Positions 1,595-53,249 of a stretch of 64,000 bases of DNA are shown piece by piece. The notes beneath the pieces were generated by a model. The model made no database searches. It was not told the origin of the DNA and saw only the letters and a program-made list of their open reading frames with translations. A program made the translations under genes and the position numbers. The stretch's first letter is position 1. Each line of letters opens with the position of its first letter. Source of the stretch: Candidatus Marinacidobacterium sp. (lineage in GTDB: Bacteria; Acidobacteriota; Vicinamibacteria; Marinacidobacterales; Marinacidobacteraceae); the NCBI GenBank assembly GCA_965204755.1, contig OZ242011.1, positions 2,944,001-3,008,000 of the forward strand, in the 5' to 3' direction.

Positions 1595-1637
1595 CCGGCA
1601 GAGCACGGGTTCCGGGGACGGGGCCGAGGAGAGACGG

Positions 1638-3023
1638 ATGCACTACCTGACGGGCAAGAGCCTTCCGAGGCGGAGTTTCCTGCGGGGCGCGGGGGCGGTG
1701 GTGGCGCTGCCGTTCCTGGACGCGATGGTTCCGGCGAGCGCGGCGGCGAAGGTCGCGGGCTCGGCGGACCGGACGCGCCTGGTTGCGGTGGAGATCGTGC
1801 ACGGCGCGGCGGGGAGCAACAAGTACGGCCGGGAGAACCACCTGTGGTCCCCGGAGGCGGAGGGGACGGAGTTCGACCTGTCCCGGGGGGCGCTGGCGCC
1901 GCTGGAGCCGGTTCGGGACTATGTGACGGTCGTGAGCGACTGCGATGTGGAGCCGGCGGAGGCGCGGACGGCGCGGGAGATCGGCGGCGACCACTTCCGT
2001 TCGAGCGCGGCGTTCCTGACGCAGTCGTATCCGAAGCAGACGGAGAGTTCCGATGTGTATGCCGGGACTTCCCTGGACCAGTTGTATGCGCAGCGTTTCG
2101 GGCAGGAGACTCCGATCCCTTCGATGCAGTTGTGCATCGAGACGGTGGACCAGGCCGGGGGTTGCGCGTACGGGTATGCGTGCGTGTACACGGACACGAT
2201 CAGTTGGGCTTCCCCGACGGAGCCGCTCCCGATGACGCGCGACCCCCGGATCGTGTTCGACCAGTTGTTCGGCGCGGGCGGGACGCCGGAGGGCCGGCTG
2301 GCTCGGCAGGAGGCGCGCCGGAGCGTGCTGGACTTCATCTCGGGGGAGGTGCGGGACCTGAAGCGCAGTCTGGACTCGGAGGACCTGCGGCGGATGGACC
2401 GGTACCTGACGGACATCCGGGAGATGGAGCGCCGGATCGAGCGGATCGTCGCGCGGAACACGAGCGGGGAGTTGCGTGACCTCCCGGATGCGCCTTCGGG
2501 GGTTCCGGACTCGTTCGACGAGCATGTGAAGATCATGTTCGACCTGCAGGCGTTGGCGTTCCAGTCGGACATGACGCGGGTGTTCAGTTTCAAGTTGGGT
2601 CGGGACGCGTCGAGCCGGGTGTATCCGGAGAGCGGTGAGTCGACGGCGTTCCACCCGGCCTCGCACCACGGGAACGACCCGGAGCGGGTGGAGATCCTGG
2701 GGCGGATCAACCGGTACCATGTGGGTTTGATTCCGTACTTCATGGAGAAGTTGCGGAGCATCGAGGAGGGTGACCGGACGCTCCTGGACAAGACGATGAT
2801 CGTGTACGGGTCTCCGATGGGCGATCCGAACATCCACAACCACAAGCGGGTCCCGTTCTTCGTTGCGGGCGGGGCGAACGGGGCGTTGGAGAACAACCTG
2901 CACTTGCGTGCGGCTCCGGGGACGCCTCTGGCGAATGTGATGCTGTCGCTGCTGCGGCGGTTGGGCCTGGAGGACTTGGAGAGTTTCGGGAACAGCACCG
3001 GGGAGTTCTCGCTTTCGGCGTAG
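1638..3023 (+). CDS. DUF1552 (HXXSHH) family protein
   Basis: ATG at 1638 after GAGGAG; Tat-like RRSFLRG..LPFLDAM; HPASHH; GCAYGYACVY. Confidence 0.88.
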   Translation: MHYLTGKSLPRRSFLRGAGAVVALPFLDAMVPASAAAKVAGSADRTRLVAVEIVHGAAGSNKYGRENHLWSPEAEGTEFDLSRGALAPLEPVRDYVTVVSDCDVEPAEARTAREIGGDHFRSSAAFLTQSYPKQTESSDVYAGTSLDQLYAQRFGQETPIPSMQLCIETVDQAGGCAYGYACVYTDTISWASPTEPLPMTRDPRIVFDQLFGAGGTPEGRLARQEARRSVLDFISGEVRDLKRSLDSEDLRRMDRYLTDIREMERRIERIVARNTSGELRDLPDAPSGVPDSFDEHVKIMFDLQALAFQSDMTRVFSFKLGRDASSRVYPESGESTAFHPASHHGNDPERVEILGRINRYHVGLIPYFMEKLRSIEEGDRTLLDKTMIVYGSPMGDPNIHNHKRVPFFVAGGANGALENNLHLRAAPGTPLANVMLSLLRRLGLEDLESFGNSTGEFSLSA

Positions 3024-5961: not shown

Positions 5962-7256
5962 GCGCCTCCGTTCCTTGGCTTCTTGATGATGACGCCCTTG
6001 GGGCGTGTGGCAACCGAGGGTCGCAAGGCGTTCATGGATGGCCCGTCCCATTGAGATCGCCGATCGTCGCTGACGAGCGCGGCGGAGAGCCGGCGTCCGA
6101 AAGACGGATTCGCTAGAAAGGACGAGCCAGACACCGTTCGCCGGACCGGCGCAAACCCGTCGAATGCAGATCGCTCATTCGGGCTGGCTCGGCGCCACTG
6201 CTTGGTGAATGGTTGGGGGGAGGCAGAAGGATCGTCGCGACGAGTGACCCAACGCGAGAGCAGGCAGGTGGAGACGTCGTCGATGAGTTTTTCGCTCCGA
6301 AGGAGCAGTCCCTCCAATGTTGCTTTTGCGTCCTCTTGGACAACATAGGTGTCGGCAGAATCGGCGTCGATGAACGCCTCGACATCGGATAGTGATGGAG
6401 ACCGGGGTAGCCGTCGTTGAGATCGAAAGCGAGCAGGGAGATGGCTAGGATTGAGTATAGTTGTGTCCGGTTCGCTATCGTGAAACTGCATTCGAAGGCC
6501 CCGATGAGTCAACATGTTTCGATAGTCCAACATCCAGTGGAGCCAGCCGCCAGCACTGTGACGGAGCACTGTGGCGCGAATCCCGGACAAGGGGTCATGG
6601 CCATCGCGATCCAGGGATTTCGGGAATGTTCGAGAGAAGGAGGCAGTCTTGATCCATTCGGGCAGTGGGTGCACGCCAATGATGAGGGCTGCCAAGCAAT
6701 CCAAGGCGCTGCAGAGGGCGCGGAGCAGCCCGTCGCGATGGATATCCGCAAGAGTGCCTCGCTGCAGGGAATCGAGTGGGCTCCGAACGGGCCCGGTAAG
6801 ACTGTCTCGCGTGGGGAAGAAGCACTCGTTCTCGGAGTGGTCCAAGTATTCGAGCCAGTGGACGCGGGCAGCAACAAGGTGCGTGGAAATACTGCTGGCG
6901 CAGACAAGGAGGTGGTCACCGATGAGGATGCGATGTGGTGTTACTTCCTTACACTGCGGAAGCCACCAGCCGATACCGTACGGCGGTGCGGTGCTAAGGT
7001 CCTCGAATACGGCCTTACGCAGGTGATGGACATGGGGTGTCTCGATGCCCAGTTTTTCCTCAAGTTCGTGCTCTTGGTGTCGCGGATCGCTACTCTGAAA
7101 CGGTTTGGCGAGGAGCGCGAGATGGGCGTCAAGCACGGTGTCGATGGGCGGTATGGTAGTCCCGAGCGAGGGCCGCATGGCCGACGCGGGAGAGAAACCA
7201 TAGCATGGGTTGCCTCGGCTGGTGGTTCGCCGATCTGGCTGCACGGGTGGCGTCAT
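5958..7256 (-). CDS. Hypothetical protein, putative HEPN-domain RNase (start uncertain)
   Basis: Helix LRALCSALDCLAALI followed by an Rx4H motif (YRNMLTHR); lower GC. Confidence 0.55.
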   Translation of the reverse strand: MTPPVQPDRRTTSRGNPCYGFSPASAMRPSLGTTIPPIDTVLDAHLALLAKPFQSSDPRHQEHELEEKLGIETPHVHHLRKAVFEDLSTAPPYGIGWWLPQCKEVTPHRILIGDHLLVCASSISTHLVAARVHWLEYLDHSENECFFPTRDSLTGPVRSPLDSLQRGTLADIHRDGLLRALCSALDCLAALIIGVHPLPEWIKTASFSRTFPKSLDRDGHDPLSGIRATVLRHSAGGWLHWMLDYRNMLTHRGLRMQFHDSEPDTTILNPSHLPARFRSQRRLPRSPSLSDVEAFIDADSADTYVVQEDAKATLEGLLLRSEKLIDDVSTCLLSRWVTRRDDPSASPQPFTKQWRRASPNERSAFDGFAPVRRTVSGSSFLANPSFGRRLSAALVSDDRRSQWDGPSMNALRPSVATRPKGVIIKKPRNGGA

Positions 7257-9023: not shown

Positions 9024-10040
9024 TCACTTCGATTGACGCGGGAAGTCTCGTGAAATCGTGCGGTCCCAGATACTGTCGAATGCTTCGGCGATGCCGTTCG
9101 GGCGAATGCCGCCGTATTCTCCGCTCGTGTGGCATATCGCGCCGCAACCGTCCTCATCGTGGAACAGCGTATGGAACGCTATCCGGTCGTTCCGTTGACG
9201 CCTCAGGTCCAACTCCTTGAGGATCACATAGTCGTGCGTCGCCAGAAACACCTGCACGCCGAGTCGGTGGAGTTTCAGGATCGCTTCAATGACGCCGCCG
9301 AGTAGAGAAGGATTCAGCGATGCCTCCGGGTGATCCCAGAACAACACGGAATCCTTTTTGAGAGTGCCGTTCCGCACCAGGAGCCAGAGCAAGCCCAGCC
9401 GTCGAAGACCGTCGGCTACGAGTGGAAACTCCAGATTGCCACGGTTGCAGTCCAAGTAGAACTCGCCATTCTCCACCCGGACTCTGCCGCCAAGGCGCAG
9501 GCCCTGAAGAACATCCTCGCGAGCGGCGTCCATCGGTACGCCGTGCGTGGTTCGGAGCGCCTGCTCGATCAGGTCCGAATGGAACTCCGGGGAGCGGGTT
9601 TCCGAGGATGATGGCCGGTTTCGAATTCCTGAGGTGCGCGACAACACTTCCTCGACCGGGATAAAGACGGCTTCCAGGGAATCATGGCGCCAAGCAGGAT
9701 CGACGCTCAGTTGCGCCGTGTTCGTCTCGCGCGAGTTCGTGGCGAATTCCAGACGCAGGCGGCGCGTCCCTCGATGCACCTCCACGGAACTGGTTTGGCC
9801 GCCGAGCCGGCGGGTGACGAGTCTCCCGATGAGCCGGTGTCGCGGTTGGAAGACGCCCACCAGTTGGTCTGCGAAGTCCTTGCCGGCGCGAGTGGCGGCG
9901 CCGGCAGCGTAGGCGACCCTCATCAAGTGCGTTTTGCCGGCGCCGTTCTTGCCGAGGAAGACATTGACGCCGGGGGAGAACTCGAGGTCGAGGTCCGTGA
10001 AGGCCGTGAAGTTCCTGAGCCGAACGCGAGTGAGGCTCAC
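9024..10040 (-). CDS. AAA_15/AAA_21-type ABC ATPase with atypical Walker B
   Basis: LRNFTAF..GVNVFLGKNGAGKT (Walker A); LFWDHPE; ATHDY (H-loop). Confidence 0.85.
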   Translation of the reverse strand: MSLTRVRLRNFTAFTDLDLEFSPGVNVFLGKNGAGKTHLMRVAYAAGAATRAGKDFADQLVGVFQPRHRLIGRLVTRRLGGQTSSVEVHRGTRRLRLEFATNSRETNTAQLSVDPAWRHDSLEAVFIPVEEVLSRTSGIRNRPSSSETRSPEFHSDLIEQALRTTHGVPMDAAREDVLQGLRLGGRVRVENGEFYLDCNRGNLEFPLVADGLRRLGLLWLLVRNGTLKKDSVLFWDHPEASLNPSLLGGVIEAILKLHRLGVQVFLATHDYVILKELDLRRQRNDRIAFHTLFHDEDGCGAICHTSGEYGGIRPNGIAEAFDSIWDRTISRDFPRQSK

Positions 10041-18284: not shown

Positions 18285-19463
18285 TCAGGCGCGCGCCGAA
18301 GGCGCCGAGGCCGGATTCCCGGAAGCGGCCTCCCCGGAATCGGCGGGCGCCGCCGCGTACTTGCCCAGCCGCAGGCTGCGCCAGGCCCGGGGCAGGAGGG
18401 GGGCGCTGAGCGCGACATTCGCCAGCAGGAAGGTCAGGTGGGCGGCCAGCGCATACGCGAGCAGGCCGGCCTCCCCGCCGGGGGACGCCGACGCAGCCGC
18501 GGAGTGGAAGTAGATCCAGGCGGCCTGGGTGGTGCCGAGGCGGGCGATCCCGATGGGAAGCGCGGCCGCCAGGAAGATGAGGGGCAGGGTGGCGACCAGG
18601 GCGCCGAAGGAGACTTCCACGCCGAAGGCCCGGAGGGCGAAGTGGTGGCCCGCCGCGGCCGCCAGCAGCGCCGGCGCCTTCCACGCGAGCACCGTCAGGT
18701 AGCGCCGGGCGCCCGCCCGCCGGAAGGCGGCCAGGATCCGCCAGCGGGGCGGGCCGACCCGCGCCGCGCCGACGCGGAGCCGCCCCCGGAGGAAGACCGC
18801 GACGAGGCCGAGCCCCGCGGCGGCGATGGCGACGGCCGCCGGCGCCCGTTCCGGAGCGGCGCTGCCGAGCGCCGCGGCGCCCAGGCCGGCCCACAGCAGC
18901 AGGTGGAGCCGCTGGCACAGGTCGAGGAACAGGAGCGTTCCCGCGCATTCCAGATAGCCGGAGTCCGGCCGGCCGCCCGCGGTGAACCGGCGGCCCATCG
19001 CCCCGAGCAGCGCCGCCTGCGACGCGCGCCCGTTCCACAGGCTCACCAGGTAGTCCACCGCCCGCAGCGACAGCACTTCGCGCGCCGGGAGGCGCGGCGG
19101 ATGGAACCAGCCGAGCGTCTGCCGCAGCAGGCCGGTGTCGAGGGCGACATAGACCACGGAAACCGGGAGCACCGCCAGCAGGAACCGGCCGGTGTCCGCC
19201 TCGGCGAACGCCGCCGCCAGGCGCTCCACCGGCACCCGGCGCAGCAGGAGCGCCAGGATGACGGCGGCCCCGACGAACGGCAGCGCCGCGAGGAGGAACC
19301 GCGCCGCTCGCCGGCGCGGGGTCGGGCCGCCGGCCGGCGCCCGGTCGCCGTTCGCGCCGCCGTTCATTCCCCCGTTCGCGCCGCCGTTCATGCCCCCGTT
19401 CGCGCCGCCGTTCACGCCCCCGTTCACGCCGCCGTTCATGCCCCCGTTCATGCCCCGGTTCAT
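18285..19463 (-). CDS. Lysylphosphatidylglycerol synthase TM / flippase-like membrane protein; start uncertain
   Basis: Multiple TM helices; LPIGIARLGTTQAAW resembles the LPG_synthase_TM motif. Confidence 0.7.
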   Translation of the reverse strand: MNRGMNGGMNGGVNGGVNGGANGGMNGGANGGMNGGANGDRAPAGGPTPRRRAARFLLAALPFVGAAVILALLLRRVPVERLAAAFAEADTGRFLLAVLPVSVVYVALDTGLLRQTLGWFHPPRLPAREVLSLRAVDYLVSLWNGRASQAALLGAMGRRFTAGGRPDSGYLECAGTLLFLDLCQRLHLLLWAGLGAAALGSAAPERAPAAVAIAAAGLGLVAVFLRGRLRVGAARVGPPRWRILAAFRRAGARRYLTVLAWKAPALLAAAAGHHFALRAFGVEVSFGALVATLPLIFLAAALPIGIARLGTTQAAWIYFHSAAASASPGGEAGLLAYALAAHLTFLLANVALSAPLLPRAWRSLRLGKYAAAPADSGEAASGNPASAPSARA

Positions 19464-19473
19464 GCCGCCGTTC
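19348..19473. repeat. 12-bp tandem repeat, about 10.5 copies of ccgttcNNNccS
   Basis: Directly visible; encodes (M/V/A)NGG on the minus strand. Confidence 0.9.
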
Positions 19474-24056: not shown

Positions 24057-25640
24057 TCAGGGGTCCTCGGCGCCCGGGCCTTCGAGCGGGATGGCCGGGA
24101 CTGCGGCGGCGGCCGGTTCGCCGTCCTCCGGCGCATCCCCGCAGGGAGCGAGTTCCTCCCGCAGCCGCGCGCTCCGCTGCCGGCGGCGCCGGACGATGCC
24201 CGCCACCGTCTCCATCCGCTGGCGGGGGCCCGCGCTCCGTCGGACGCCTTCGACGGCTCGACCGGCATCGGACGGAGTGAGCCCCGGCAGGACCGCCGAC
24301 GCCTCCAGCGGACGGGCCGGCGCCCCTCGCCCCAGGGCCAGGAAGTCCGCCCGGAGCATCTTCTCCCCGCGCTTGCCGCTGATGCGCCAGAACTCCCGAA
24401 CGCCCAAGTCGGCGTACCGGGCGATCTTGCCCTCGTCGGCGTGGGTGATCTCGACTTCGACCACGAGGTCCGGGCCGTTTTGTTCGAGGAATGCTTGCGC
24501 GGCTTCCTCGCTCTCGGCCTCGGCGCGGAGGTAGGCCTCGGCCCGTTCCCCCACATGGAAGCAACAGTCCGGTTCCGGACCGGTTCCCGGAGGTTCCCCC
24601 TCCCCGCGCAGGCGCACATTCCCGAATTTGGCCGTGGCCCGGCCCAGCGCCTCCGCCGCGCAGTCCACGATGTCGTCGAGGACCACGCCCAGGCGCTCGT
24701 GGAGGCGCGAAGGGCTCATGAGGACGACGACTTCCCGCGCCGGGTCGAGCCATACCCGGCGGAACCGGCTCGTCCAGTCCAGCCCGGCGAGGGCCGCCAC
24801 CGTCGCCGCGTCCGCGCGCAGGCGGTAGATCGTCGAGCCGAGCGGCCCGACGAAACTCGTGCGCTCCGGCGGCGGGACCGCGCCGCCCGCCGGCGGCGGC
24901 GCCCCGTAGGGGGCGCGTTCTTCCCGCACCCGGAAACTCTCGCGTCGGCGCCGCCGGACGATGCGCGCCACCCACTCGATGCCCTCCCGGGGGTCCAGGC
25001 TCAGTTGGACACCCTCGACGGCTTCGCAGACATCCGGCGGAGTGAGCCCCGGCAGGACCGCCGACGCCTCCAGCGGACGCGGCGCCGCGCCCCGGCCGAG
25101 AGCCAGGAAGTCCGCCGAGAGCGTCTCCCCTCCGCGCTTGCCGCGCAGTCTCCAGAACTCCCGGACCCCCAGGTCGGCGTAACGAACGATCTTGCCCTCG
25201 TCCGCGTGGGTGATCTCGACTTCGACGACGAGGTCCGGGCCGTTCTCCGCGAGGAAGGCGTCCGCCGCTTCCTGGCTCCCGGCCAGCGCCTCGACATAGG
25301 CGCGGGCGCGCTCCCCGACATAGAAGGAGCAGTCCGGCTCCATGCCCGTTCCGGGCGGCGCGTCCTTCCCGCGCAGGCGAACGCTCCGGAGTTTGGCGGA
25401 GGCGCGGCCCAGGACGCCGGCCGCCGCCCGCACGATGTCGTCGAAGACCCCGGTCAGGCCTTCGTGGCGGGGTGACGGGGACATGAGGACGACGACCCCC
25501 CCGACCGGGTCCAGCCACACCCGGCGGAAGCGGCTCGTCCAGTCCAGACCGGCGAGCGCGGCCACCGTCGCCGCGTCCGCGCGCAGGCGGTAGATCGTCG
25601 AGCCGAGCGGCCCGACGAAACTCGTGCTCGTCCCGGTCAT
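24057..25640 (-). CDS. Uma2 (DUF820, PD-(D/E)XK-fold) family protein with two tandem domains
   Basis: Occurs twice: MSPS..H, EPDC.F, PDLVVEVEIT, K..RYADLGVREFW; GAGGAG RBS. Confidence 0.88.
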   Translation of the reverse strand: MTGTSTSFVGPLGSTIYRLRADAATVAALAGLDWTSRFRRVWLDPVGGVVVLMSPSPRHEGLTGVFDDIVRAAAGVLGRASAKLRSVRLRGKDAPPGTGMEPDCSFYVGERARAYVEALAGSQEAADAFLAENGPDLVVEVEITHADEGKIVRYADLGVREFWRLRGKRGGETLSADFLALGRGAAPRPLEASAVLPGLTPPDVCEAVEGVQLSLDPREGIEWVARIVRRRRRESFRVREERAPYGAPPPAGGAVPPPERTSFVGPLGSTIYRLRADAATVAALAGLDWTSRFRRVWLDPAREVVVLMSPSRLHERLGVVLDDIVDCAAEALGRATAKFGNVRLRGEGEPPGTGPEPDCCFHVGERAEAYLRAEAESEEAAQAFLEQNGPDLVVEVEITHADEGKIARYADLGVREFWRISGKRGEKMLRADFLALGRGAPARPLEASAVLPGLTPSDAGRAVEGVRRSAGPRQRMETVAGIVRRRRQRSARLREELAPCGDAPEDGEPAAAAVPAIPLEGPGAEDP

Positions 25641-25725
25641 CCGGGCTCCTCGGCGCCCGGGCCTTCGGGCGGGACAGCCTCGCCGGCGGCGGCGTCCGGG
25701 CGGGCGCCCGACGGAGCGGGACGGG

Positions 25726-26424
25726 TCACGGCGCGGCCTCCGGGGCGGGCCGGCCGGCGAGCCGCGCGAGAACCCGGCGCGCGACGCCCGATCGCCTCTC
25801 TCCCTGCGCCGCCCAGTCGCCGGCGGCCCACAACTCCTCCAAGTCTTCCCGGTGGACGCCGGGAACGACTTCGGACGCGGGAACCGACTCCGCCTCCGCT
25901 CCCGGCCGGCGGCGGTGGATCGCCGCCCCGCCCGTCGGCGTCCACGCCCAGACCTCGCGCACTCCCGAGTCGAAGTAGTCGCCGCGCTTTTCCGCCGCGC
26001 GCGCCGGCGGGGAACTCCGGTCGATCTCCACGACCAGCGGCGGCGGTCGGTGCCCGCGTTCCGGACAGCACGCCTCGTCGAAGCCGAAACCGAGTTCGAC
26101 TCCGGGGTCGAAGAAGTAGAACGACTCGTCCGGTTCCAGCACCGAGCCGCGCCACTCGATCCGGAGCGCGCCGGCCCCGTACGCCCGGTCGCCGCACACC
26201 GCGCGAACCAGGTCGTACGCCAGCCTCGCGCGGGAGTCGCGGCCGAGCATCGGCTCCGCCACCACCTCCGCCAGTCCGCGGCGAGCGTCGTAGTCCCCCC
26301 GCGGCCAGGCGAAACGGCTCGCCCCGCGGTCGAACTCCGCCCGCGTCATCCGCCGACCCTCCACGCCCCGCGCCGACCTCGCACTCGCCGGCTCGCCCGC
26401 ACTCGCCGGTTCGCCCGCACTCAC
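25726..26424 (-). CDS. Uma2 family protein, divergent paralogue
   Basis: EPDESFYF, PPLVVEIDRS, KRGDYFDSGVREVW. Confidence 0.78.
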   Translation of the reverse strand: MSAGEPASAGEPASARSARGVEGRRMTRAEFDRGASRFAWPRGDYDARRGLAEVVAEPMLGRDSRARLAYDLVRAVCGDRAYGAGALRIEWRGSVLEPDESFYFFDPGVELGFGFDEACCPERGHRPPPLVVEIDRSSPPARAAEKRGDYFDSGVREVWAWTPTGGAAIHRRRPGAEAESVPASEVVPGVHREDLEELWAAGDWAAQGERRSGVARRVLARLAGRPAPEAAP

Positions 26425-26467
26425 CGCCTCAGCCGCTCCTTTCCGCGCTCACGCGAAACGCACCCGT

Positions 26468-26540
26468 CAGTCTCGGTCTCGGGCTCGATTCCGGGCTCGA
26501 TATCGGGCTCGGTCTCGGGCTCGATCTCCGTCCCGATCCG
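26468..26540. repeat. Degenerate 12-bp tandem repeat (cgggctcgatNN-like)
   Basis: About five units visible between the Uma2 start and the 13-bp array. Confidence 0.65.
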
Positions 26541-26771
26541 GGCGCCGACCGCAGTGTAACCACTTGGTTCGACGGGCGCTTCCGCGCCTCCGGCGCCCCC
26601 GCGGGCTCGCCCCGGCGGCGGCGGAACGGCGTCGGATGACGCCGACTGTCGAGAGACACCAACCCTTGCGCAGTTGGGAGACACCGACTTTTGCGCACCC
26701 GGAAGCGGCGGAGGGGAGGCCGATCCCGAACTACGACCCGTCCACGAAAGCGGGGCGACCTCACCCCGCAG

Positions 26772-26848
26772 CTATACACAATTCCGTCCACCTATACACA
26801 ATTCCGGTCAGCTATACACAATTCGGGGGATCCAGCTATACACAATTC
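26772..26848 (+). repeat. Direct-repeat sub-array 1: four copies of CTATACACAATTC
   Basis: Exact copies at 26772, 26792, 26812 and 26836. Confidence 0.97.
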
Positions 26849-27026
26849 GGCTGAACCCCTTGCGGCCGTAGGCGATACGAGAAACCATCGGGCGGCCCGG
26901 GACGCCCCTCCGGGAGGCGTACGCGGCCCTCGGATGCCCCATGTGCGGCTTCCCGGGCTCCCCGGCGGTCGTCCGGCGAGTCCCGAAGCGGCGTGTTCCG
27001 CCGCCGGCCCGCGCCGCGGCGTCCAC

Positions 27027-27137
27027 CTATACACAATTCGCGTCACCTATACACAATTCCGGGCCGAGCTATACACAATTCGGCCGAGCTATACACAATT
27101 CGACCTATACACAATTCCGCTCACCTATACACAATTC
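27027..27137 (+). repeat. Direct-repeat sub-array 2: six copies of CTATACACAATTC
   Basis: Exact copies at 27027, 27047, 27069, 27089, 27105 and 27125. Confidence 0.97.
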
Positions 27138-27317
27138 GCCCACCGCCCGGCGGGGGCGCGGGACGAGCGGGGGCTCTCCCCGCGGAGCCGTCGGAAGCGG
27201 AGGGCGCCCCGGAGGCCGAGGCGGAGGATCGGGCGAAGGATCGGGGCGGCTTCGCCGCCCGGCGGCGCGTCCGACTTCCCGCCGCCCGGCGGGGGCGCCG
27301 GCCGCTCGCGCCCCTCG

Positions 27318-28133
27318 TTACGGCTCCTCGGTGCTCAGGCCATCGAGCGGGATGGCTCCGACGGCGGCGGCGGCCGGCGCCCCGACCGCCGCCTCCCCGT
27401 AGGGCGCCCGCTCCTCGCGCACGCGCACGCTCTGCTGCCGGCGGCGCCGGACGATGCTCGCCACCGTCTCGATCCGGTCACGGTTGTGCGGGCTCCGCCG
27501 GACGCCCTCGACGGCTCGACAGACATCCGACGGAGTGAGCCCCGACAGGACCTCCGACGCGTCCAGCGGACGCGGCGGCGCCCCTCGCCGGAGGGCCAGG
27601 AAGTCCGCCCGGAGCGTCTTCTCCCCGCGTTTGCCGCGGAGGCGCCAGAACTCCCGCACGCCCAGGTCGGCGTACCGGGCGGTCTTCCCTTCGTCGGCGT
27701 GGGTGACCTCCACCTCGACCACCAGGTCCGGGCCGTTCTGCTCGAGGAACGCCTGCGCGGCTTCCTCGCTCTCGGCCGCGGCGTCCAGATACGCCCGGGC
27801 TCGATCCCCGACATAGAAGGAACAATCCGGTTCCATGCCGGTGCCGGGAGGCTCCCCTCTCCCGCGGAGGCGCACGCTCCCGGACTTGGTCGAGGCGCGG
27901 CCCAGCGCGTCCGCCGCCGCACCCACGATCTCGTCGATGACCCGGGTCAGGAGTTCATGGAGCGGCGACGGAGACATGAGGACCACCACTTCCCGCACCG
28001 GGTCCAGCCACACCCGGCGGAAGCGGCTCGTCAGGTCCAGGCCGGCGAGCGCGGCCACCGTCGCCGCGTCCGCGCGCAGGCGGTAGATCGTCGAGCCGAG
28101 CGGCCCGACGAAACTCGTGCTCGTCTCCGTCAC
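27318..28133 (-). CDS. Uma2 family protein, close paralogue of both domains in 24057-25640
   Basis: GTG start after GGAGG; EPDCSFYVG, PDLVVEVEVT, RYADLGVREFW. Confidence 0.88.
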   Translation of the reverse strand: MTETSTSFVGPLGSTIYRLRADAATVAALAGLDLTSRFRRVWLDPVREVVVLMSPSPLHELLTRVIDEIVGAAADALGRASTKSGSVRLRGRGEPPGTGMEPDCSFYVGDRARAYLDAAAESEEAAQAFLEQNGPDLVVEVEVTHADEGKTARYADLGVREFWRLRGKRGEKTLRADFLALRRGAPPRPLDASEVLSGLTPSDVCRAVEGVRRSPHNRDRIETVASIVRRRRQQSVRVREERAPYGEAAVGAPAAAAVGAIPLDGLSTEEP

Positions 28134-45432: not shown

Positions 45433-46401
45433 TCAGTCCAGCGTCGAGATCCGCTTGCGGAAGATCTCGTACAGCAGGTTCAGCCTCTCAGTGAGCCACT
45501 GGTAGCCGGCTTCGCGTTGACCCTCGTCCTGCCAGTTCGGATCCTGAGTCCTGCAATAGATCTTGCGCTGGATCGTGTCCGTGTTCGTGTCCCACACGAG
45601 ACCGTCATCACCGAACTGTTCGCCGAACTGCGCGTCGATCTCTGCGCGCTGCCGTTCGAGTGCCCTGAACCGCTCCCCAGCTCTGTCCCCAAAGAGCACG
45701 AATTCGCTGCGCAACTCAGGCGGATCATCTGCCCACGAACTCGCCGCAATCGCCTGAAGCCCGAAGCCGTCCTTGCCGATGGCCAAGGTCATCGAAGACG
45801 CAGCTTGCGGAGCGGTGGGACGAAATCTCGCCTTGTGCCTCTTGGCGTAGTCGACGAAGCCTCGCCAGAATTCAAGTTGGGCCATCTTCACCGGTGGCAA
45901 CTCAATGGGCCGGTTCTTCGTCCAGTCGTTCGGCTTAGCCACGATGTTGAACTTCGGAGCGGGAAGCGAGTCGTCGATTCTCCAGACCTCGATCTCAAGT
46001 CCGAAGAAGCGAATGTTCTCTCGTGTGTTCTCGTTCAGCCAGTCGAGTGCTGCCCGATGTTCGTCAGTGAACCGCTTGGCGATCCAGATCACCTTGAGCG
46101 CGTTGAGCCCTGCCGCGTAGGTCAGGATCTGACCGAGATGGCTGTGATCGGTCCTTTCGAGTTGGTTCTCGATGACGACTCTGCTGCTGTCCGCCGTATC
46201 GAAGGCGAGGATGTCGGCGGCGTAGTCTCCGACGCCTACCTCGGCGCCTTCCAACTTCAGTTTCATTCCCAAGACCTCGCCGAGGAATTGCAGGTTCTCG
46301 TCTTTCGCCAGCCACGGAGTGAAGTCACCGGCCTCATGTTTCCACACTTCCCGTTCCTCCACGCGGGACAGGCGAGAAAGGGGTTCGATAGACAGACTCA
46401 T
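45433..46401 (-). CDS. DUF4268 protein with N-terminal PD-(D/E)XK (NucS-like) nuclease domain
   Basis: REVWKHEAGDFTPWL, ADIL..VVIENQLERTDHSHLGQILTYAAG, WLNE. Confidence 0.85.
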   Translation of the reverse strand: MSLSIEPLSRLSRVEEREVWKHEAGDFTPWLAKDENLQFLGEVLGMKLKLEGAEVGVGDYAADILAFDTADSSRVVIENQLERTDHSHLGQILTYAAGLNALKVIWIAKRFTDEHRAALDWLNENTRENIRFFGLEIEVWRIDDSLPAPKFNIVAKPNDWTKNRPIELPPVKMAQLEFWRGFVDYAKRHKARFRPTAPQAASSMTLAIGKDGFGLQAIAASSWADDPPELRSEFVLFGDRAGERFRALERQRAEIDAQFGEQFGDDGLVWDTNTDTIQRKIYCRTQDPNWQDEGQREAGYQWLTERLNLLYEIFRKRISTLD

Positions 46402-46727
46402 GGCTTGGGCGGAACGGGCTCCGGGCGACCGAAGCCTATCATGAACGGCGCCAAGTCGGCATCATGGTGCGGCTGACGCTTTCGGGAACACCGATTCCCG
46501 TCACGGCGCGAGTGGCCGGCTATCGCTCGGCACTTGCCCGGTCCGGCGAGGTGCAGTGCGCGAGGCCGCCGTGGCCACGACGGCCGAAGTTCGGCGCAAC
46601 CCTCGGTCGCCGTGGACCCCGGCCTCGCCCAGCCGGCTGCGCCCACACCTGCAAGAATTCACCACGCACGGCGCGATATGGAATCCACACCCTCCACAAC
46701 TACTCTGAATCACAGACTCGGGAAGGA

Positions 46728-49661
46728 CTATTCGTGAACGAGGCCCGGCGGTCGCGTCTTCTTGCCGCCGTGCACAGTCGGTTCGGCGCACCACTTCTTC
46801 CGAAGAAGATCGAGAGGTTCCAGCACACTTTCCGGGAGTCGCAGGATTCGGAGGAGGACAGCCGCGTCCAGCGCCTTCCGGGTCGCGTCCCGGTACGCTT
46901 CATTGGCCGGAAGCAGCGGCCGCTTCGAGAACTTGCCGAAGATCGCGGACGCGATGCGGAGTTGTGGGGGATCCAGGGTTCGAACATCGAGAACGGGAAG
47001 GTCCTTGAGCCCCATGCCGGTCAGGCGGGCTCGTCCGCTCTGCTGCCTGCTGCCCTTCCACCAGAACAGCAGGAGGCCGAGAGTCGTGTTCGCCCAGAGC
47101 AGAAGCGCTTTCTCGTGAGCGGACTCGTGCGCGGTAATCGTCGGCCAGGCGGTCCCGCCCATCGTCCTCTCGTCCGTCCAGCACGCGGCGAGGGGCTGTG
47201 AGTTCAGTCGGAAGTCCAGATTGAAGTGCAGGTGGGAGGCGGACCCCCAGGCGGCCGCGGCCTTGTCCTCCATTCCGGGGCGGACTTCACCGCGGCTGTC
47301 CGGAGCGACCGTGAGTTGTTGCTCCTGCTGGGCGTCATGACGCCAGAGCATCGGATAGGTCGGATAGTCGCCGACCGAGGTCGGAGCGACATCGAAAGGC
47401 CCGCGGTAAGTGCCGTCCGAGTTCAGACCGCTTATGTCGCGATGCACCGGCCCCTTCCTGCCGATCTCCGCGAGAGCCGCGGTCGGCACGGTGATGTCTC
47501 CCCGTGTCCCGGGAAGAGCCAGCGTCCCCGCCTCCAGCGCCAGCGCCGTCTTGGCCACGGACAGGTCGCCGACGGAGGCGCAGCCTCCCGCCCTTACCGG
47601 AGCGCGAATCGTTCCGGCGATTACCTCCGACCCCGATCGTATCGTCTCCGGTCGGCGCTCCGACACCGTGGCGAGTCGGATCTGCCGGGCGGTCTCCTCG
47701 GCGCCCATTTCCGTTCGGGGCCTCTCGCGCAGCCCGACCCAGTCGGCAGAGGTTCGTACATCCGTGTAGACATCCCGATCGGAATCGCTCATCTGTCTCT
47801 TGCGGGCGATCACCAACACTTCCGCCATCCCGGTGTCCGCGGAGAAGGACTGCTCGTCGGGACGCCCGCGGGAGATCGTGACGAAGACGATGTCCTCGTA
47901 CCGCGTGTCGAGCAATCGGCGAGCATCGGCCCATGCGGCTCCGCTGACCATGACGAGCGGCATCACGAGGGCGAGCGCGCCCCCCGGCTTCAGTTTGAGG
48001 TGCGCGAGATCGAGAAAGTTGGAGGCCAAGCCCGCGTTCCCGTGCCCGACCGGCTCGTCGAGCCCGCTTCGTCTGCGGGCCAACAAGGCGGACATGCGCT
48101 GCTGCTCGTTCTTGCTGGTTTCGAACCCGGCGAACGACGGAACGGGAACATCGGCGACTTCATGATTCGTCGGGCGGGTGAACGGCGGATTCATGATGAC
48201 CAGATCCAGACTGCCGTGAGGGATGGAGAACTCCGAGAGATCACCGCCTCCGATCTCCGTGTCGGCCTCGGCCGCAGTGACTCGACGGATGCCTGTCGAG
48301 AAGAGGGAGATGCCGGATCTCTCGTCGAGGAGGTCCAAGGCGCCGATTCGGAAGGTCTGATCCCGGTCGATGTCCGTCAGGCCGTAGGGAAGCGTGTAAA
48401 CCCTCGTCTGCTCGAACAGCGTCGTCGGGTTTGCGCTGGCGAGTATCGAGGTCGTCAAGTGCGTGGCGGCCGGCATGATGTCCGTTGCGATCAGCGAATC
48501 TTCGATCATGGCCCGATGGAGGGCGCGGTCGTCGCCTCCCGCGCGCCGGTGGCGCCGGGCGACGGCGCGATATGCGGCGGTGAGCAGCGTGCCGGTGCCG
48601 CATGCGAAGTCCGCGATACGGAGGGACCGCAGGGTGTCGGGATTACGCCACTCGACCGATATCCTCCCCACTGCCAACTCCGCGAGGAGAGTGGCGGCCG
48701 CCGGACGGGTGTAGAAGGTCGCCAAGAACTTCCGATCGGTGATCAGTCTCTGGAACATGCGCCCCGAGAGATCGTGGGACCGGGCCACGCCGGAGTCTGC
48801 GATCTCTTCGGCGACGGACGCCAGCCGGCTGAGGATGTCTCCGGAAATTCCTTCGGGAATCGTCGAGAGGATCCGGGAGGCGACATGGAAGATCGGCCAG
48901 TAGTTGATGTCGTCGAGGATGCGGCGCCATTCCCGCAGGGTGAGCCTCTTCGAGATCAGGCCGCTCTCGCCCCGCAATCCCTCGATCCCCGGAACATCGC
49001 GGACACCGGCGATCATCGTCTGGAATGTGAGCGCGTTGGCGAGAATCGCCATGGCCATCCGCGTGGTCTGTTCGCCCGGGGTCTGGTGGAGCGACTCAGA
49101 AATGCCGTCGAGAACATCGGGGCGTCGCGCGCAGGCGCTTCGGAGTCGTTCTGCGGACTGCGATACACCCTCCTCGAGAACACCGAGCATTCTCGTGACG
49201 AGTCGCTCGGACAGGGCGCTCGACTCCACGAGATCAGCGAGGGAGTCCGCGTCGCCGTCGATCCAGCCCGCCCGCGGCCAGCGGACGGCGGTGTCCTCGG
49301 ACGACCAGAGGCAGTACTGGTACCGGGCGGTGGCGACCGCCTCGGGCAGCGCGTGTTGGCCGACTCGTCGGAGAGATTCAGGAACCCGGACCGCGATGGC
49401 GTGATCGATGGACCGGCCCGTAGCCAGGACTTTGGCGCCCAGCCGGGACTTGGCGTCCGCTTCGACGGTTCTGGCGGGCAGGAACTCGGTTTCCAGGACT
49501 ACGGGGCCGGCGCCGGGCTCATGGACAAGCACATCGGGACGCCTTCCACCGGGGAGGACTCCGATCGGTTCGGCTTGCAGCACATCGTCCTCGCGCCACC
49601 GGGGGTTTCTCGCCCGCATCGCGCCGGCGAGGGCGCTGTTGAAGGTGTGCTCGTCGTTCAC
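46728..49661 (-). CDS. Type IIG-like fused restriction-modification enzyme (N6-adenine MTase)
   Basis: N-terminal PDVL..VLETE; FYT; DFACGTG (motif I); NPPF (motif IV); TRD-like C-terminus. Confidence 0.82.
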   Translation of the reverse strand: MNDEHTFNSALAGAMRARNPRWREDDVLQAEPIGVLPGGRRPDVLVHEPGAGPVVLETEFLPARTVEADAKSRLGAKVLATGRSIDHAIAVRVPESLRRVGQHALPEAVATARYQYCLWSSEDTAVRWPRAGWIDGDADSLADLVESSALSERLVTRMLGVLEEGVSQSAERLRSACARRPDVLDGISESLHQTPGEQTTRMAMAILANALTFQTMIAGVRDVPGIEGLRGESGLISKRLTLREWRRILDDINYWPIFHVASRILSTIPEGISGDILSRLASVAEEIADSGVARSHDLSGRMFQRLITDRKFLATFYTRPAAATLLAELAVGRISVEWRNPDTLRSLRIADFACGTGTLLTAAYRAVARRHRRAGGDDRALHRAMIEDSLIATDIMPAATHLTTSILASANPTTLFEQTRVYTLPYGLTDIDRDQTFRIGALDLLDERSGISLFSTGIRRVTAAEADTEIGGGDLSEFSIPHGSLDLVIMNPPFTRPTNHEVADVPVPSFAGFETSKNEQQRMSALLARRRSGLDEPVGHGNAGLASNFLDLAHLKLKPGGALALVMPLVMVSGAAWADARRLLDTRYEDIVFVTISRGRPDEQSFSADTGMAEVLVIARKRQMSDSDRDVYTDVRTSADWVGLRERPRTEMGAEETARQIRLATVSERRPETIRSGSEVIAGTIRAPVRAGGCASVGDLSVAKTALALEAGTLALPGTRGDITVPTAALAEIGRKGPVHRDISGLNSDGTYRGPFDVAPTSVGDYPTYPMLWRHDAQQEQQLTVAPDSRGEVRPGMEDKAAAAWGSASHLHFNLDFRLNSQPLAACWTDERTMGGTAWPTITAHESAHEKALLLWANTTLGLLLFWWKGSRQQSGRARLTGMGLKDLPVLDVRTLDPPQLRIASAIFGKFSKRPLLPANEAYRDATRKALDAAVLLRILRLPESVLEPLDLLRKKWCAEPTVHGGKKTRPPGLVHE

Positions 49662-49829
49662 GAAGAGCCCCCGGCCGTAAGTCGCAAATGTTCGGACGCG
49701 CGGCGTCTCCCGTAGTGACGCGACACCCAAGGGTAATACTAGCGCCGACGCAGAGCAGTAGCGCCAGTGTGCCGGTCGGGAAACCGGGCGTCGGACGGAG
49801 CGGAATTCGGCCGTGGTTCCCTGTGGCGG

Positions 49830-50420
49830 CTACAAACGGGTGAGGGGTTCATGAGGTGGGAGCGAGCGCGCCGCCAGGGCGACATCGAGAGATGCGGCCA
49901 AGGCTGCCTCGCCGTTCTCGCGGAGTTGAGACGGCAACTCCGGGCGGGAGCGGGGGAGGGCGCCGGCGCGGGTGAGACAGGCGCGGGCTCGGTGCGAGAG
50001 CCAGATGAGGCGGTATTCGGCGGCCGCCTCCTCGTCCCCGATCTCCTGCATCCGGAGGAGGACTTTCCGAGCGGCGGCGGCGCGTTCGTCCGCGACTTCC
50101 GGGTCGGGCAGGGGAAGCCGGTGGCGCCAGCGCCGCGAGATGGCGCCCCAGTGTCCTTCACAGTCGAGCAAGGGGTGGCCGAACTGCACCGCCCCGATCA
50201 AGAGGTCGTTCGCGGAGCGAAGGGACGGCTCCACCCGGTCGAGCGCGACCTTGCGGAGGTCCACCTCGATCGGGGGTCGTTCGGCGATGGCGGATCGATC
50301 GCGGCAGATCGCCAGCAGGTCCAAGTCTTCCGACTCGACGCCGGGCCGCGTGGCGGAGCCGATGGCGATGACGGCGAGGAGGTTCGGGTCTCCCGCGGCG
50401 CGGTCGAGGAAGGCGCCCAC
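49830..50420 (-). CDS. Minimal nucleotidyltransferase (MNT) with HEPN-like helical C-terminus; 5' end uncertain
   Basis: IGSATR..EDLDLL (GS..DxD), VDL. Confidence 0.65.
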   Translation of the reverse strand: MGAFLDRAAGDPNLLAVIAIGSATRPGVESEDLDLLAICRDRSAIAERPPIEVDLRKVALDRVEPSLRSANDLLIGAVQFGHPLLDCEGHWGAISRRWRHRLPLPDPEVADERAAAARKVLLRMQEIGDEEAAAEYRLIWLSHRARACLTRAGALPRSRPELPSQLRENGEAALAASLDVALAARSLPPHEPLTRL

Positions 50421-50810
50421 CCACCGGCGGGAGCGGGCGGTGGGCCAGCGGAGGATCGGCCGTTCGGTTGTTTTCCGTCGTCACCTCGGATCTACGAGCC
50501 CAAAGGCGGAGGCGACATGGTATTCGACAGCCGCGGCAACCTCGCAGTCAACGACGACACAGATACCGCCAAAGTCGCTGTCGCACGGACATCGTCTTCC
50601 GAATCTTCGACAAGAGATCACTCGGCGGCTCCACAATCCACTTGGAGTAGTCGACAGGGGGAACCATGTCTTTTGACGGGTCGCCTTTCCCGATTGCTCT
50701 TCTTCTCATCATCCGAACGAAGTTGTCGTTCTGCATCGCACTTAGACCTTGGACTGCCTTCTTTTGCGCCATCGGTCTCGCAATACAACCGAAGCGACAT
50801 CATTAGTCGA

Positions 50811-51008
50811 GGCGACGATGTCAGCCGAGAAGTCCCCCACGCCGACTTCCGCGTCCTCCTACTCCAGTTCCATTCCCAGGGTTTCTCCGAGAAACTGCAA
50901 GTTCTCGCCCATCGCGAGCCACGGAGTGAAGTCCTCCGCCTCATGTCTCCACACTTCCCGCACGCCCACGCGGCGCAGTCGAGAAAGTTACTCGATGATG
51001 TGATTCAT
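50811..51008 (-). pseudogene. Truncated second copy of the DUF4268 gene 5' end
   Basis: MNHIIE*LSRLRRVGVREVWRHEAEDFTPWLAMGENLQFLGETLGMELE*EDAEVGVGDFSADIVA aligns with the protein starting at 46401; two in-frame stops. Confidence 0.85.
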
Positions 51009-51046
51009 GGTGTGGGTCGCACAGCCGATAGAGCTAATGTCGTCTA

Positions 51047-51613
51047 CTACCGTGGGCAGTGCGTGTACCCCATGGCGCGGTCGACGCCCTCCAGGAACAC
51101 ACGAAAACTCGAAGACCGGTTGCCCTCGCGGCCGAGACAGCCGGACATGGCTCTGGCTCCCGCGACCTTGCCGAAGCCGGGGACGAGTTTCCCGATCATC
51201 TGTGACGGGTTGCCGATGGTGTCCGGATTTCGGAATTGCGCTTTGGCCGCGAGTCGCGCCAGTTTCGGGTCATTGAAGGCGACGGCCATGGCGTGGGGGT
51301 CTCCAAGATACCAGGCCTCCAATTCGCGACACGCGATGCGAACGACCGCACCCGGCTTCCCGGCTCGTTCACACAACGTCGCGAGGTGTTGCTTGACGGC
51401 CTCGCACTCGGCGGCGTCCTGATCCCGCAAGACCACGAACCGAGTGTCGGGCGTGCGCCAAGCGCGGAGTTTTCTCCCGACACTCCGGTCGAGGTCGGCC
51501 TTCCCTTCATGGGTGATGAGGCGGAATCGCAGGCTGGGGAAGAAGCGAGGCAGGAGACCGTTCAGGAACTCCCTCATGGAGCGGTCCTCCACGAAGAAGA
51601 CGACCTCGCTCAT
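51047..51613 (-). CDS. DUF4276 (TOPRIM-like) family protein
   Basis: VFFVEDRS, HEGKADL, LRDQD, ELEAWYLGD, NRSSSF. Confidence 0.82.
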   Translation of the reverse strand: MSEVVFFVEDRSMREFLNGLLPRFFPSLRFRLITHEGKADLDRSVGRKLRAWRTPDTRFVVLRDQDAAECEAVKQHLATLCERAGKPGAVVRIACRELEAWYLGDPHAMAVAFNDPKLARLAAKAQFRNPDTIGNPSQMIGKLVPGFGKVAGARAMSGCLGREGNRSSSFRVFLEGVDRAMGYTHCPR

Positions 51614-52785
51614 TGGGGCTCGGCTCCCGGGAACAGGCCTTGTTTCCACAGAGTCCCCGGACGATCTCCTTCCTCAACCAGTGCGCGGATCTGTTTGTCG
51701 TGGGAGGCGCGCCGGGCGATGCTGACGCCGTTGCTCTTGACGAGCCAGAAGACTTCGTCCAAGTTGGCGGCATTGAGGAAATCCGGAGAATGGGTCGAGA
51801 CGAAGACTTGGCCTCCCTGACGAGCGTAGCCACGAAACTCCTCTGCGAGTTCTTCCATGAGATGAGGGTAGAGTTGGTTTTCCGGTTCCTCCACGGCCAG
51901 CAGCGGGTGCGGTTTCGGATCGTGGAGAAGCACGAGGTAGGCGAACATCTTGATCGTGCCGTCGGAGACATAGCGCGCGATGAACGGATCCTCGAACGCG
52001 CCGTCCTGAAAACGCAACATCAGCCTTCCGTCCTCTGTCGTCCGTGCTTCAACCCGTTCGATTCCAGGTATACGAGACTTCATCACCTCCAGAATTCGGT
52101 CGAAGCGATCGCGATGGTTCTCATAGAGGAATTTGGCGACCGGTGCGACATTCTCGCCGCGCGATGACAGATGTTCAGCGTAGACGGCATCGACGCTCGG
52201 ACGAGCTTCGGAGATGTGAAAGTCAGAGATGTACCAGTTCTCGATGATGTTGCGGAACTCCGAGACGACGCGGAAATCACGAAACTGACCGAGCCCCTTG
52301 ATGGCAGGAACGCTGGGATCGTCCAGCCGGAACTCTTTGCGTTCTTCCTTTACGTCCTCCTGTCCATAGGCAGATTCATTGGTGATGGCCACCCCGGATC
52401 CGCCTCGGAACGAAAGAAATTGCCACGGTTTGCCGCGGGCGCCTCGGCGGTACTGCAGGATCTCCCTGCGGATGACGACACGGCCGGAGTCCTCGGCCAC
52501 TTCAAGGATGTAGGTCGCGAGGCGACCGCCACTCTCGCGGAACTTGATCGTGATCGCGACAGCCCCCTTCTGCGCGCGCGTCGTGAGTTCCTGAAGTCCA
52601 CCTCGACGAGCGACCGCGATCGCGACATTGGAGGTAAGGGACTCCTTCAGGAAACTGAAGACATCAAACAGGGTGGACTTCCCGGTTCCGTTCGCGCCGA
52701 CGACGACCGCCATGCGCGGCAAATCGGCCAGCACCGTCCGGTGGAGACAGCGGTAGTTGCGAATCTCGATTCGTGTGATGTGCAT
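51610..52785 (-). CDS. AAA_21-type ABC ATPase
   Basis: GANGTGKS, SDGT, AVEEPEN, STHSP; ATGA coupling to DUF4276. Confidence 0.9.
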   Translation of the reverse strand: MHITRIEIRNYRCLHRTVLADLPRMAVVVGANGTGKSTLFDVFSFLKESLTSNVAIAVARRGGLQELTTRAQKGAVAITIKFRESGGRLATYILEVAEDSGRVVIRREILQYRRGARGKPWQFLSFRGGSGVAITNESAYGQEDVKEERKEFRLDDPSVPAIKGLGQFRDFRVVSEFRNIIENWYISDFHISEARPSVDAVYAEHLSSRGENVAPVAKFLYENHRDRFDRILEVMKSRIPGIERVEARTTEDGRLMLRFQDGAFEDPFIARYVSDGTIKMFAYLVLLHDPKPHPLLAVEEPENQLYPHLMEELAEEFRGYARQGGQVFVSTHSPDFLNAANLDEVFWLVKSNGVSIARRASHDKQIRALVEEGDRPGTLWKQGLFPGAEPQ

Positions 52786-53249
52786 GGCGAGACGGCCTGA
52801 GAGAAGTGCGGGCGGCACCGAAGGCGGGCCGACGCGGCCCGCGAATTCTAACCGGAGCGGGTCCGGTAGGTCAGCGGGGTGAGCACCGCGTGGAGCCGTG
52901 GGGCGCATCAGGCATAGGCGCTTGAAAGGGCGGGGGCGAGCGGCGGCACGGGCCACCGGAAGAGGGGCGACTGGTCTTTTTCGTTCGGATGGCCGGTAGT
53001 CCGCTCCGGAGAGCGACCGGGGAGGCAGCCGGGACGTTCAGGGCACAGGAAGGCATGTTCTCTCGTGGTAGCCTTTCCGGCTGCTGGCCATTCCGGCGTC
53101 GGCGTTCCCGGTCGGGGTGGGGTCGGCGGGCGCGGCGGTCGTTTCGCGCTTCGAGAGCGCCGACTTCGAGTCGCGCCGGGGGGCGCCCGGCGCGGTGGCC
53201 GTTCTGCTCCCTTCTCCTCCGGTCAGCCGAGGGCTGATCGTGGTGTCCG

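Follow-up and report, generated by a model that had tools for sequence, protein, structure and literature searches.

A conserved two-cluster array of identical 13-nt direct repeats as a candidate docking platform for a DNA-binding protein

Known elements in which one protein site is repeated many times mark key cis-acting functions, namely origins, centromeres and initiator-titrating loci. The hallmark of iteron origins is a set of several co-oriented direct repeats of 17–22 bp spaced at about two helical turns. Two-cluster plasmid centromeres, such as R1 parC with 5 + 5 repeats and pBtoxis tubC with 3 + 4, are bound by small adaptor proteins, and clusters of DnaA boxes are found outside origins as well, as in datA of E. 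coli and the DnaA-box clusters of B. subtilis. Several other repeat systems have their own characteristic dimensions. CRISPR arrays consist of repeats of about 23–55 nt with unique spacers of similar length and usually come with cas genes, type III toxin–antitoxin loci of the ToxI-like kind carry near-identical tandem units of about 34–40 nt directly upstream of the toxin gene and on the same strand, and sponge-type RNAs (CsrB- and CrcZ-type) present their motifs at a spacing that resembles a period of about 20 nt. To our knowledge, few conserved non-coding elements of bacterial chromosomes hold at least ten identical sites for a protein.

The array described here was found in a 64-kb window (the whole stretch of DNA that was analysed), whose gene content comprises planctomycete-type families (PSD/PSCyt domains, DUF1501 and DUF1552) together with metG, lepA and an Omp85 protein. 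The 13-nt core CTATACACAATTC occurs in the window as ten exact copies, all on the plus strand and arranged as 4 + 6. The left cluster (26772–26848, plus strand) has cores starting at 26772, 26792, 26812 and 26836, with start-to-start periods of 20, 20 and 24 bp; the right cluster (27027–27137, plus strand) has cores starting at 27027, 27047, 27069, 27089, 27105 and 27125, with periods of 20, 22, 20, 16 and 20 bp. The two are separated by a linker of 178 bp (26849–27026) with a GC content of 77%. Our recount thus agrees with the first-pass annotation of this DNA, which had reported ten same-orientation copies in two groups of four and six about a GC-rich linker of this length. The periods that it listed are also correct, as is its extended consensus A[GC]-core-[CG], which holds for 10 of 10 copies and defines an asymmetric site of about 16 bp (A-S-CTATACACAATTC-S). 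The chance expectation for the core at two or fewer mismatches is 0.06 matches per window, and none of 100 shuffled sequences reached 11. When up to three mismatches are allowed, the sole site in the 64 kb beyond the ten copies is at 6448–6460, with two mismatches, and the array is therefore free of degenerate copies.

All 13 core columns are invariant across the ten copies, while the spacers between the cores, 3–11 nt long, vary in both length and sequence. The five spacers of 7 nt have a mean pairwise identity of 51% compared to the 32% expected from composition. Duplex stability is lower in the right cluster than in any other segment of the 64-kb window, at segment lengths of 60, 100 and 120 nt alike. 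A phasing of about 20–22 bp, or two helical turns, had been claimed for the array; the periods themselves stand, but the ten copies in this window are not tightly phased on the helix (resultant length of 0.26–0.48 at pitches of 10.5–11), and the phasing in the relatives described below is far tighter.

The array sits in a gap of 893 bp (26425–27317) flanked by two minus-strand genes. The third-position GC content of ORFs in the gap is 0.61–0.81 compared with 0.88–0.93 in the neighbouring genes, a Pfam scan of six gap ORFs gave no match, and the periods (16, 20, 22 and 24) are not multiples of three. On these three grounds we regard the gap as non-coding, in agreement with what had been stated at first, and the Pfam-negative ORFs with their non-coding third-position GC speak against a small protein encoded in it.

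The gap contains other repeats in addition to the array. Two 25-bp direct repeats, 80% alike (26648–26697, plus strand; repeat family D12), lie about 75 bp to the left of the array and are kept in close strains, two of which (P0020 and P0022) match the window from 26636 and thus cover them; it is uncertain whether these repeats are part of the element. A sigma-54-type promoter suggested by eye in the same repeats was rejected, as the GG of the −24 element is missing. Two 27-nt direct repeats on the plus strand, 89% alike (27139–27165 and 27278–27304; repeat family D9), bound a segment of 139 bp. This segment is kept in close strains P0020, P0022 and P0023 and is absent in P0004, where the last core runs straight into the second repeat. 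The gap is also rich in short tandem repeats, located within 26466–26549 and 26380–26436, which comprise five 12-bp units (CTCGGGCTCGAT-like) and three 18-bp units that run into the 5′ end of the adjacent gene of the Uma2 family (gene C) and encode SAGEPA repeats. A search for CRISPR repeats in this window yielded two weak matches, with 3.7 expected.

Because gene callers predict spurious ORFs across high-GC gaps, related arrays are expected to be deposited as 'hypothetical proteins'. The core has no stop codon in any frame of the plus strand and translates as (S/T)YTQF, (A/P)IHNS or LYTI, depending on the frame. A query with the ORF that crosses the right cluster in this window found two array-spanning proteins among 191 candidates, and one of these two (P0005) used as a query led to 17 array-spanning proteins among 430 candidates. 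An exhaustive HMMER search of 1.84 billion cluster representatives gave 15 matches at E ≤ 0.001, 13 of them with the core, and a cluster look-up contributed three further members. The family sample consists of 22 array-spanning ORFs. The contigs that carry them, all from ENA or JGI, are between 1.1 and 329 kb long. These ORFs hold 217 exact core words and 18 with one residue changed, where 'exact' refers to the positions visible in the given reading frame, as peptide words hide synonymous changes.

The relatives share the layout of the array. Two clusters are spanned by 16 of the 22 ORFs, with 3–10 and 4–7 copies (truncation of an ORF at one end accounts for the smallest counts), and their linkers measure 167–224 nt in all 16 cases. 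The period is 20–21 nt in 160 of 197 intervals and 19–22 nt in 181 of 197. All 235 cores in the 22 ORFs are on one strand, with none inverted. In one frame, 79 copies allow the flanking bases to be read: position −2 holds A in 73 of them, and position +1 holds G or C in 77. By composition-corrected tblastn, distant relatives match the window only across 26737–27161, that is, the two clusters and the linker, which indicates that what is conserved is the array itself. The match of close strains P0020, P0022 and P0023 is 93–96% over 26636–27278. Copy number varies among the close strains by one unit, with five instead of four copies in the left cluster (P0020 and P0022) and seven instead of six in the right (P0004), and the core is retained throughout. 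The first-pass annotation had suggested a comparison of intervening sequences between strains; in diverged relatives the spacers, linker and flanks differ, and the core, the period and the two-cluster layout are kept. Judged by these matches, the array belongs to a conserved family and is not a one-off at this locus. This is the new result, and it makes the observation stronger than first reported. A search for longer fused forms that would reveal neighbouring genes returned 597 candidates, none of them significant, which is weak evidence.

One lineage of relatives (P0006–P0009) differs in its surroundings. The words WIET, GLKHE, PLKR and GLIEA recur in the array flanks at a spacing of 20–22 residues (60–66 nt), and we take them to be what type I-C-like CRISPR repeats ending in GGATTGAAAC would encode. 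In this lineage, the array thus seems to adjoin a CRISPR array.

The data establish that the sites exist and are strongly selected, that they keep a conserved layout, and that they lie in non-coding DNA. Selection on the core follows from its identity in the presence of drifting spacers, linker and flanks; the earlier claim that the core is selected and does not owe its uniformity to slippage is strengthened by the same pattern of invariant core and divergent spacers, which holds both here and in the relatives. An identical asymmetric site, head-to-tail packing at two helical turns, two clusters at a set distance and a small, narrow family lead us to consider it probable that the element is a cis-acting non-coding docking platform on which a single sequence-specific DNA-binding protein, the product of a gene elsewhere in the genome, would assemble. 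Each cluster, with its co-oriented, asymmetric sites of about 16 bp packed at about 20–21 bp, would be filled by this protein as monomers or as head-to-tail oligomers, and a bridge across the linker could join the two loaded clusters, about 170–220 bp apart. The models are iterons and DnaA-box clusters, and the element most likely works in their manner, through binding and assembly of a protein on the sites. The first-pass annotation had presented a choice between a loading platform, possibly for the flanking Uma2 proteins, and a small-RNA array. Of these, the protein-binding platform is retained, as the layout recurs in diverged relatives, and Uma2 as the binder and the small-RNA array are not supported.

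The 8 of 9 match to the DnaA-box consensus makes DnaA the most concrete candidate for the bound protein. The first nine bases of all ten copies are one mismatch away from TTATNCACA, a general consensus that may not be that of the host, and one other site in the 64 kb comes within one mismatch of it, compared with 2.75 expected. The box was chosen after the motif had been seen, and for that reason the match serves as a lead and not as a test. Of the specific versions of the docking-platform reading, the foremost is a chromosomal origin or DnaA-binding cluster, which we put forward tentatively on the basis of sequence resemblance. The bipartite array might conceivably be the oriC of a high-GC clade, in which DnaA would sit on an extended 13-nt box present in 10–17 co-oriented copies and forming two platforms. 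Such an origin would function without an adjacent dnaA gene and without a classical AT-rich unwinding element. The counter-evidence is considerable. Among the window ORFs scanned with Pfam there was no dnaA, dnaN or other usual origin-linked gene, although this linkage is usual and not universal. No AT-rich unwinding element was found in the gap, where the GC content in 40-nt windows is 45–53% in the arrays and 60–90% in the flanks and linker, and the lowest value, 45%, belongs to the array itself. Third-position skew gives a switch at 27 kb of −0.018 ± 0.025 (42 genes) or +0.014 ± 0.022 (40 genes), and 25 of 42 genes are co-oriented with divergent forks (p = 0.14), both measures having little power in a window of 64 kb. 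The low duplex stability of the two clusters, which rank first and third or fourth among the least stable segments, counts for the DnaA version; conservation in the array spans four bases beyond the 9-nt DnaA box, which counts against it.

A literature search found no occurrence of the 13-mer or its complement. As far as the accessible texts extend, it also found no paper describing a planctomycete replication origin, and the accessible part of a genome comparison of Isosphaeraceae (PMC5352709) mentions neither dnaA nor oriC. The small size of the family as a sign of one array per chromosome is only suggestive.

Arrays resembling this one were sought in a genome collection by a pattern scan for three copies of the 8-base heart of the core at periods of 14–28 bp. 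The 13-mer was present in none of the 133 loci among the matches listed, which were mostly unrelated tandem repeats. The matches listed include 47 arrays of this 8-mer that have variable spacers and at least 2 kb of sequence, loci of two satellite-rich genomes among them. A DnaA homologue lies beside 7 of the 47, and these seven all represent one Veillonella locus; this low base rate counts against the DnaA version. In one of the seven (L004), a positive control that counts for it, three direct TTATACACA boxes with periods of 21–22 bp are located 12 bp upstream of a gene with Bac_DnaA and Bac_DnaA_C domains, and rnpA is on the other side. The other six (L009, L010, L061, L067, L068 and L071) have the same spacers as L004, and the DnaA homologue is present there as well. 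Five loci (L004, L009, L010, L061 and L071) have another box 1692 bp downstream, L068 has a near-identical one, and L067 ends before that point. From their arrangement, the Veillonella boxes look like a bipartite origin around dnaA.

One more locus from the scan (L015, positions 2001–2440 of the Planctomycetota MAG contig JACQXL010000145.1) has eight copies of a 13-mer that shares CTATACACA with the core, at periods of 22 and 66 bp. They occupy a non-coding stretch of about 450 bp between outer-membrane-like and permease-like genes on a 4.7-kb contig. No dnaA, dnaN or Uma2 gene lies beside it. We dropped this locus as a relative of the array, as the extra shared base is not significant. Its build is similar to that of the array in the window, and a relationship is unproven.

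The strict co-orientation of all copies fits a role at the RNA level as well as it fits DNA binding. If the array were transcribed, the G-free 13-mer of the plus strand or its complement could serve as a sponge whose many sites titrate a small RNA or an RNA-binding protein, or the transcript could be processed into short units. A strand-specific role of this kind predicts the single orientation seen in 235 of 235 family cores and in the ten copies here, the plus-strand core is devoid of G in a window with a GC content of 70.6%, and the period of about 20 nt is similar to the motif spacing in sponge RNAs. However, the predicted folds of 26740–27320 (581 nt) on both strands are no better than those of shuffled sequences (z = −0.40 and −0.73), and Rfam yielded no match at E ≤ 1 around the gap and, at the gathering score, none anywhere in the 64 kb. 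The gap yielded no sigma-70-like promoter, and the lone weak terminator-like hairpin (minus strand, 26907–26890, inside the linker) is within the shuffle expectation, with one found and 0.5 expected. A tRNA search found none. The conserved flank bases and the period of two helical turns are suited to recognition of duplex DNA. We therefore view an element acting as RNA as unlikely, and the repeat-processed small-RNA array that had been proposed finds no support in the fold scores or in Rfam.

Another explanation views the array as a remnant of a mobile replicon. It would be what is left of the iterons or partition centromere of an integrative element, plasmid or phage that now resides in the chromosome. 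The architecture is like that of iteron origins and of two-cluster centromeres such as R1 parC. According to the accessible text of a preprint, planctomycete plasmids carry an RPA-family initiator beside putative iterons, and chromosomal RPA genes look like integrated plasmids (10.1101/2024.01.22.576637). In the window, however, no Rep/RPA, Par, integrase or transposase was detected among 73 ORFs and segments scanned with Pfam or 15 scanned with NCBIfam, and metG, lepA and the Omp85 protein represent housekeeping genes. A tblastn search of 72,556 plasmids and 50,697 phage records with the array-spanning ORF P0011 gave no match, and blastn of the region produced one irrelevant 42-nt plasmid match and none in phages. 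The same locus is retained across diverged lineages, which likewise argues against a mobile remnant, and we consider such an origin of the array improbable.

The genes next to the array suggested a further possibility. Four Uma2 (PF05685) domains are present in three minus-strand ORFs on both sides of the array, with Pfam scores of 61.9 bits for the fused A + B ORF, 31.8 for C and 31.8 for D at a gathering cut-off of 27, which bears out the initial report of Uma2 genes on either side. A and B are two D-type copies fused in frame in a 527-aa ORF (24057–25640, minus strand). Gene C (25726–26424, minus strand) is of a type distinct from the other three, with 31% identity to D over 125 residues, and gene D (27318–28132, minus strand) is one of the three recent duplicates. 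A 3′-end remnant of a fourth D-type copy (25644–25699) is butted against the start of copy A. A, B and D share 80–84% DNA identity, and local amplification of a single gene accounts for most of the Uma2 'cluster'. The duplication reaches to about 30 bp beyond the stop codon and so leaves out the array, and the gap and gene C make up a unique segment of about 1.6 kb that has copies of the amplified gene on either side.

The array could in principle form a module with these genes, either as the place where the neighbouring Uma2 proteins of the PD-(D/E)XK type load or as their small-RNA partner. The Uma2 genes do lie on each side of it, the unique segment means that the array and gene C could be one unit, and close strains keep the 3′ end of the D-type gene beside the array. 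In addition, PADLOC gives matches of the Uma2 proteins to PDC-S17, a candidate single-gene defence family, although these are only partial. On the other hand, three of the four Uma2 domains are local duplicates, which inflates the impression of a cluster, and the array is excluded from the duplicated unit. The distant relatives have no detectable common flank beyond 26737–27161, which is no proof that Uma2 is absent beside their arrays, and in the P0006–P0009 lineage the array flanks carry the CRISPR-repeat-like words instead. A tblastn search of a plasmid collection with both Uma2 types found no relative, and the accessible literature offers no link between Uma2/DUF820 and repeat arrays. The proposed link is thus one of adjacency, it is not supported by the local duplication or by the extent of the match in distant relatives, and the element is probably unconnected to Uma2; we regard a joint module as quite improbable. 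Finally, we consider it highly improbable that the array is a minisatellite without function whose uniformity is due to slippage and gene conversion. For such a reading, copy number varies in close strains (4 vs. 5 and 6 vs. 7), the window has no degenerate copies, as homogenisation would give, and the gap is rich in other short repeats. Against it, slippage and homogenisation should have made the spacers uniform too, and these vary in both length and sequence around an unchanging core; the core, flank bases, period and two-cluster layout persist where spacers and linkers have diverged.

The window has several other features of note. A defence island with a lower GC content (62–67%) extends from 45433 to 56233. 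It contains PDC-S11/DUF4268 (45433–46401), a 1000-aa protein with weak methyltransferase-like matches (46728–49730), the HEC-01 pair AAA_21 + DUF4276 (51047–52956) and HEC-06/GmrSD (54524–56233); a HEC-02A ATPase is located apart from the island, at 9024–10040. A tandem repeat at 19346–19473, with a 12/24-bp period, about 10.7 copies and a score of 196, lies at the 5′ end of a minus-strand gene (18285–19463) that has a weak, below-cutoff match to LPG_synthase_TM. The PSD-family and DUF1552 genes at 8–3023 have a third-position GC skew of +0.32 to +0.34, unlike all other genes in the window.

If the locus is an origin, or a site occupied by a single protein in 10–17 copies, it would provide a direct handle on that protein and, for the construction of plasmids in these bacteria, a candidate replicator. 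Failing both, the locus would be a strongly selected element among variable, defence-type genes in at least two lineages, and worth explaining as such.

The array can be compared with the known systems. ToxI-like repeats differ from it, as conservation here covers only 13 of the roughly 20 nt in a unit, unit length ranges from 16 to 24 nt, and 178 bp separate the clusters. A CRISPR array differs from this locus in its dimensions, as the repeats here are 13 nt and the spacers 3–11 nt long, and no cas domain was present among the scanned ORFs. Two-cluster centromeres are among the closest known systems, with direct repeats in two groups about a central segment, but their central segment measures tens of bases compared with 167–224 nt here, and no genes of the parR/parM or tubR/tubZ type were found in the window.

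DnaA-box clusters, of the oriC and other kinds, resemble the array in that the first nine bases of each copy are one mismatch from the consensus, a lead as stated above, and direct boxes at 21–22 bp do occur upstream of a real dnaA in Veillonella. They differ in that 13 bases and the flanks are conserved here compared with 9, in the single orientation of the copies, and in the lack of a nearby dnaA or dnaN and of an unwinding element; nor is a skew switch apparent, at the little power that a 64-kb window gives. Iteron origins differ from the locus in three respects: no initiator gene (Rep/RPA) adjoins the array among the ORFs scanned with Pfam and NCBIfam, no AT-rich unwinding region adjoins it and only the arrays themselves are low in GC, and the locus is chromosomal, with housekeeping genes and without a match in the plasmid and phage collections. 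In their architecture, however, iterons such as those of RK2 oriV and P1 oriR/incA resemble the array. Both are built of co-oriented, asymmetric sites of about 16–19 bp at about two helical turns, with an invariant core and variable spacers and often in more than one cluster, and the ten copies found here, together with a family in which 160 of 197 periods are 20–21 nt and no copy is inverted, conform to this pattern.
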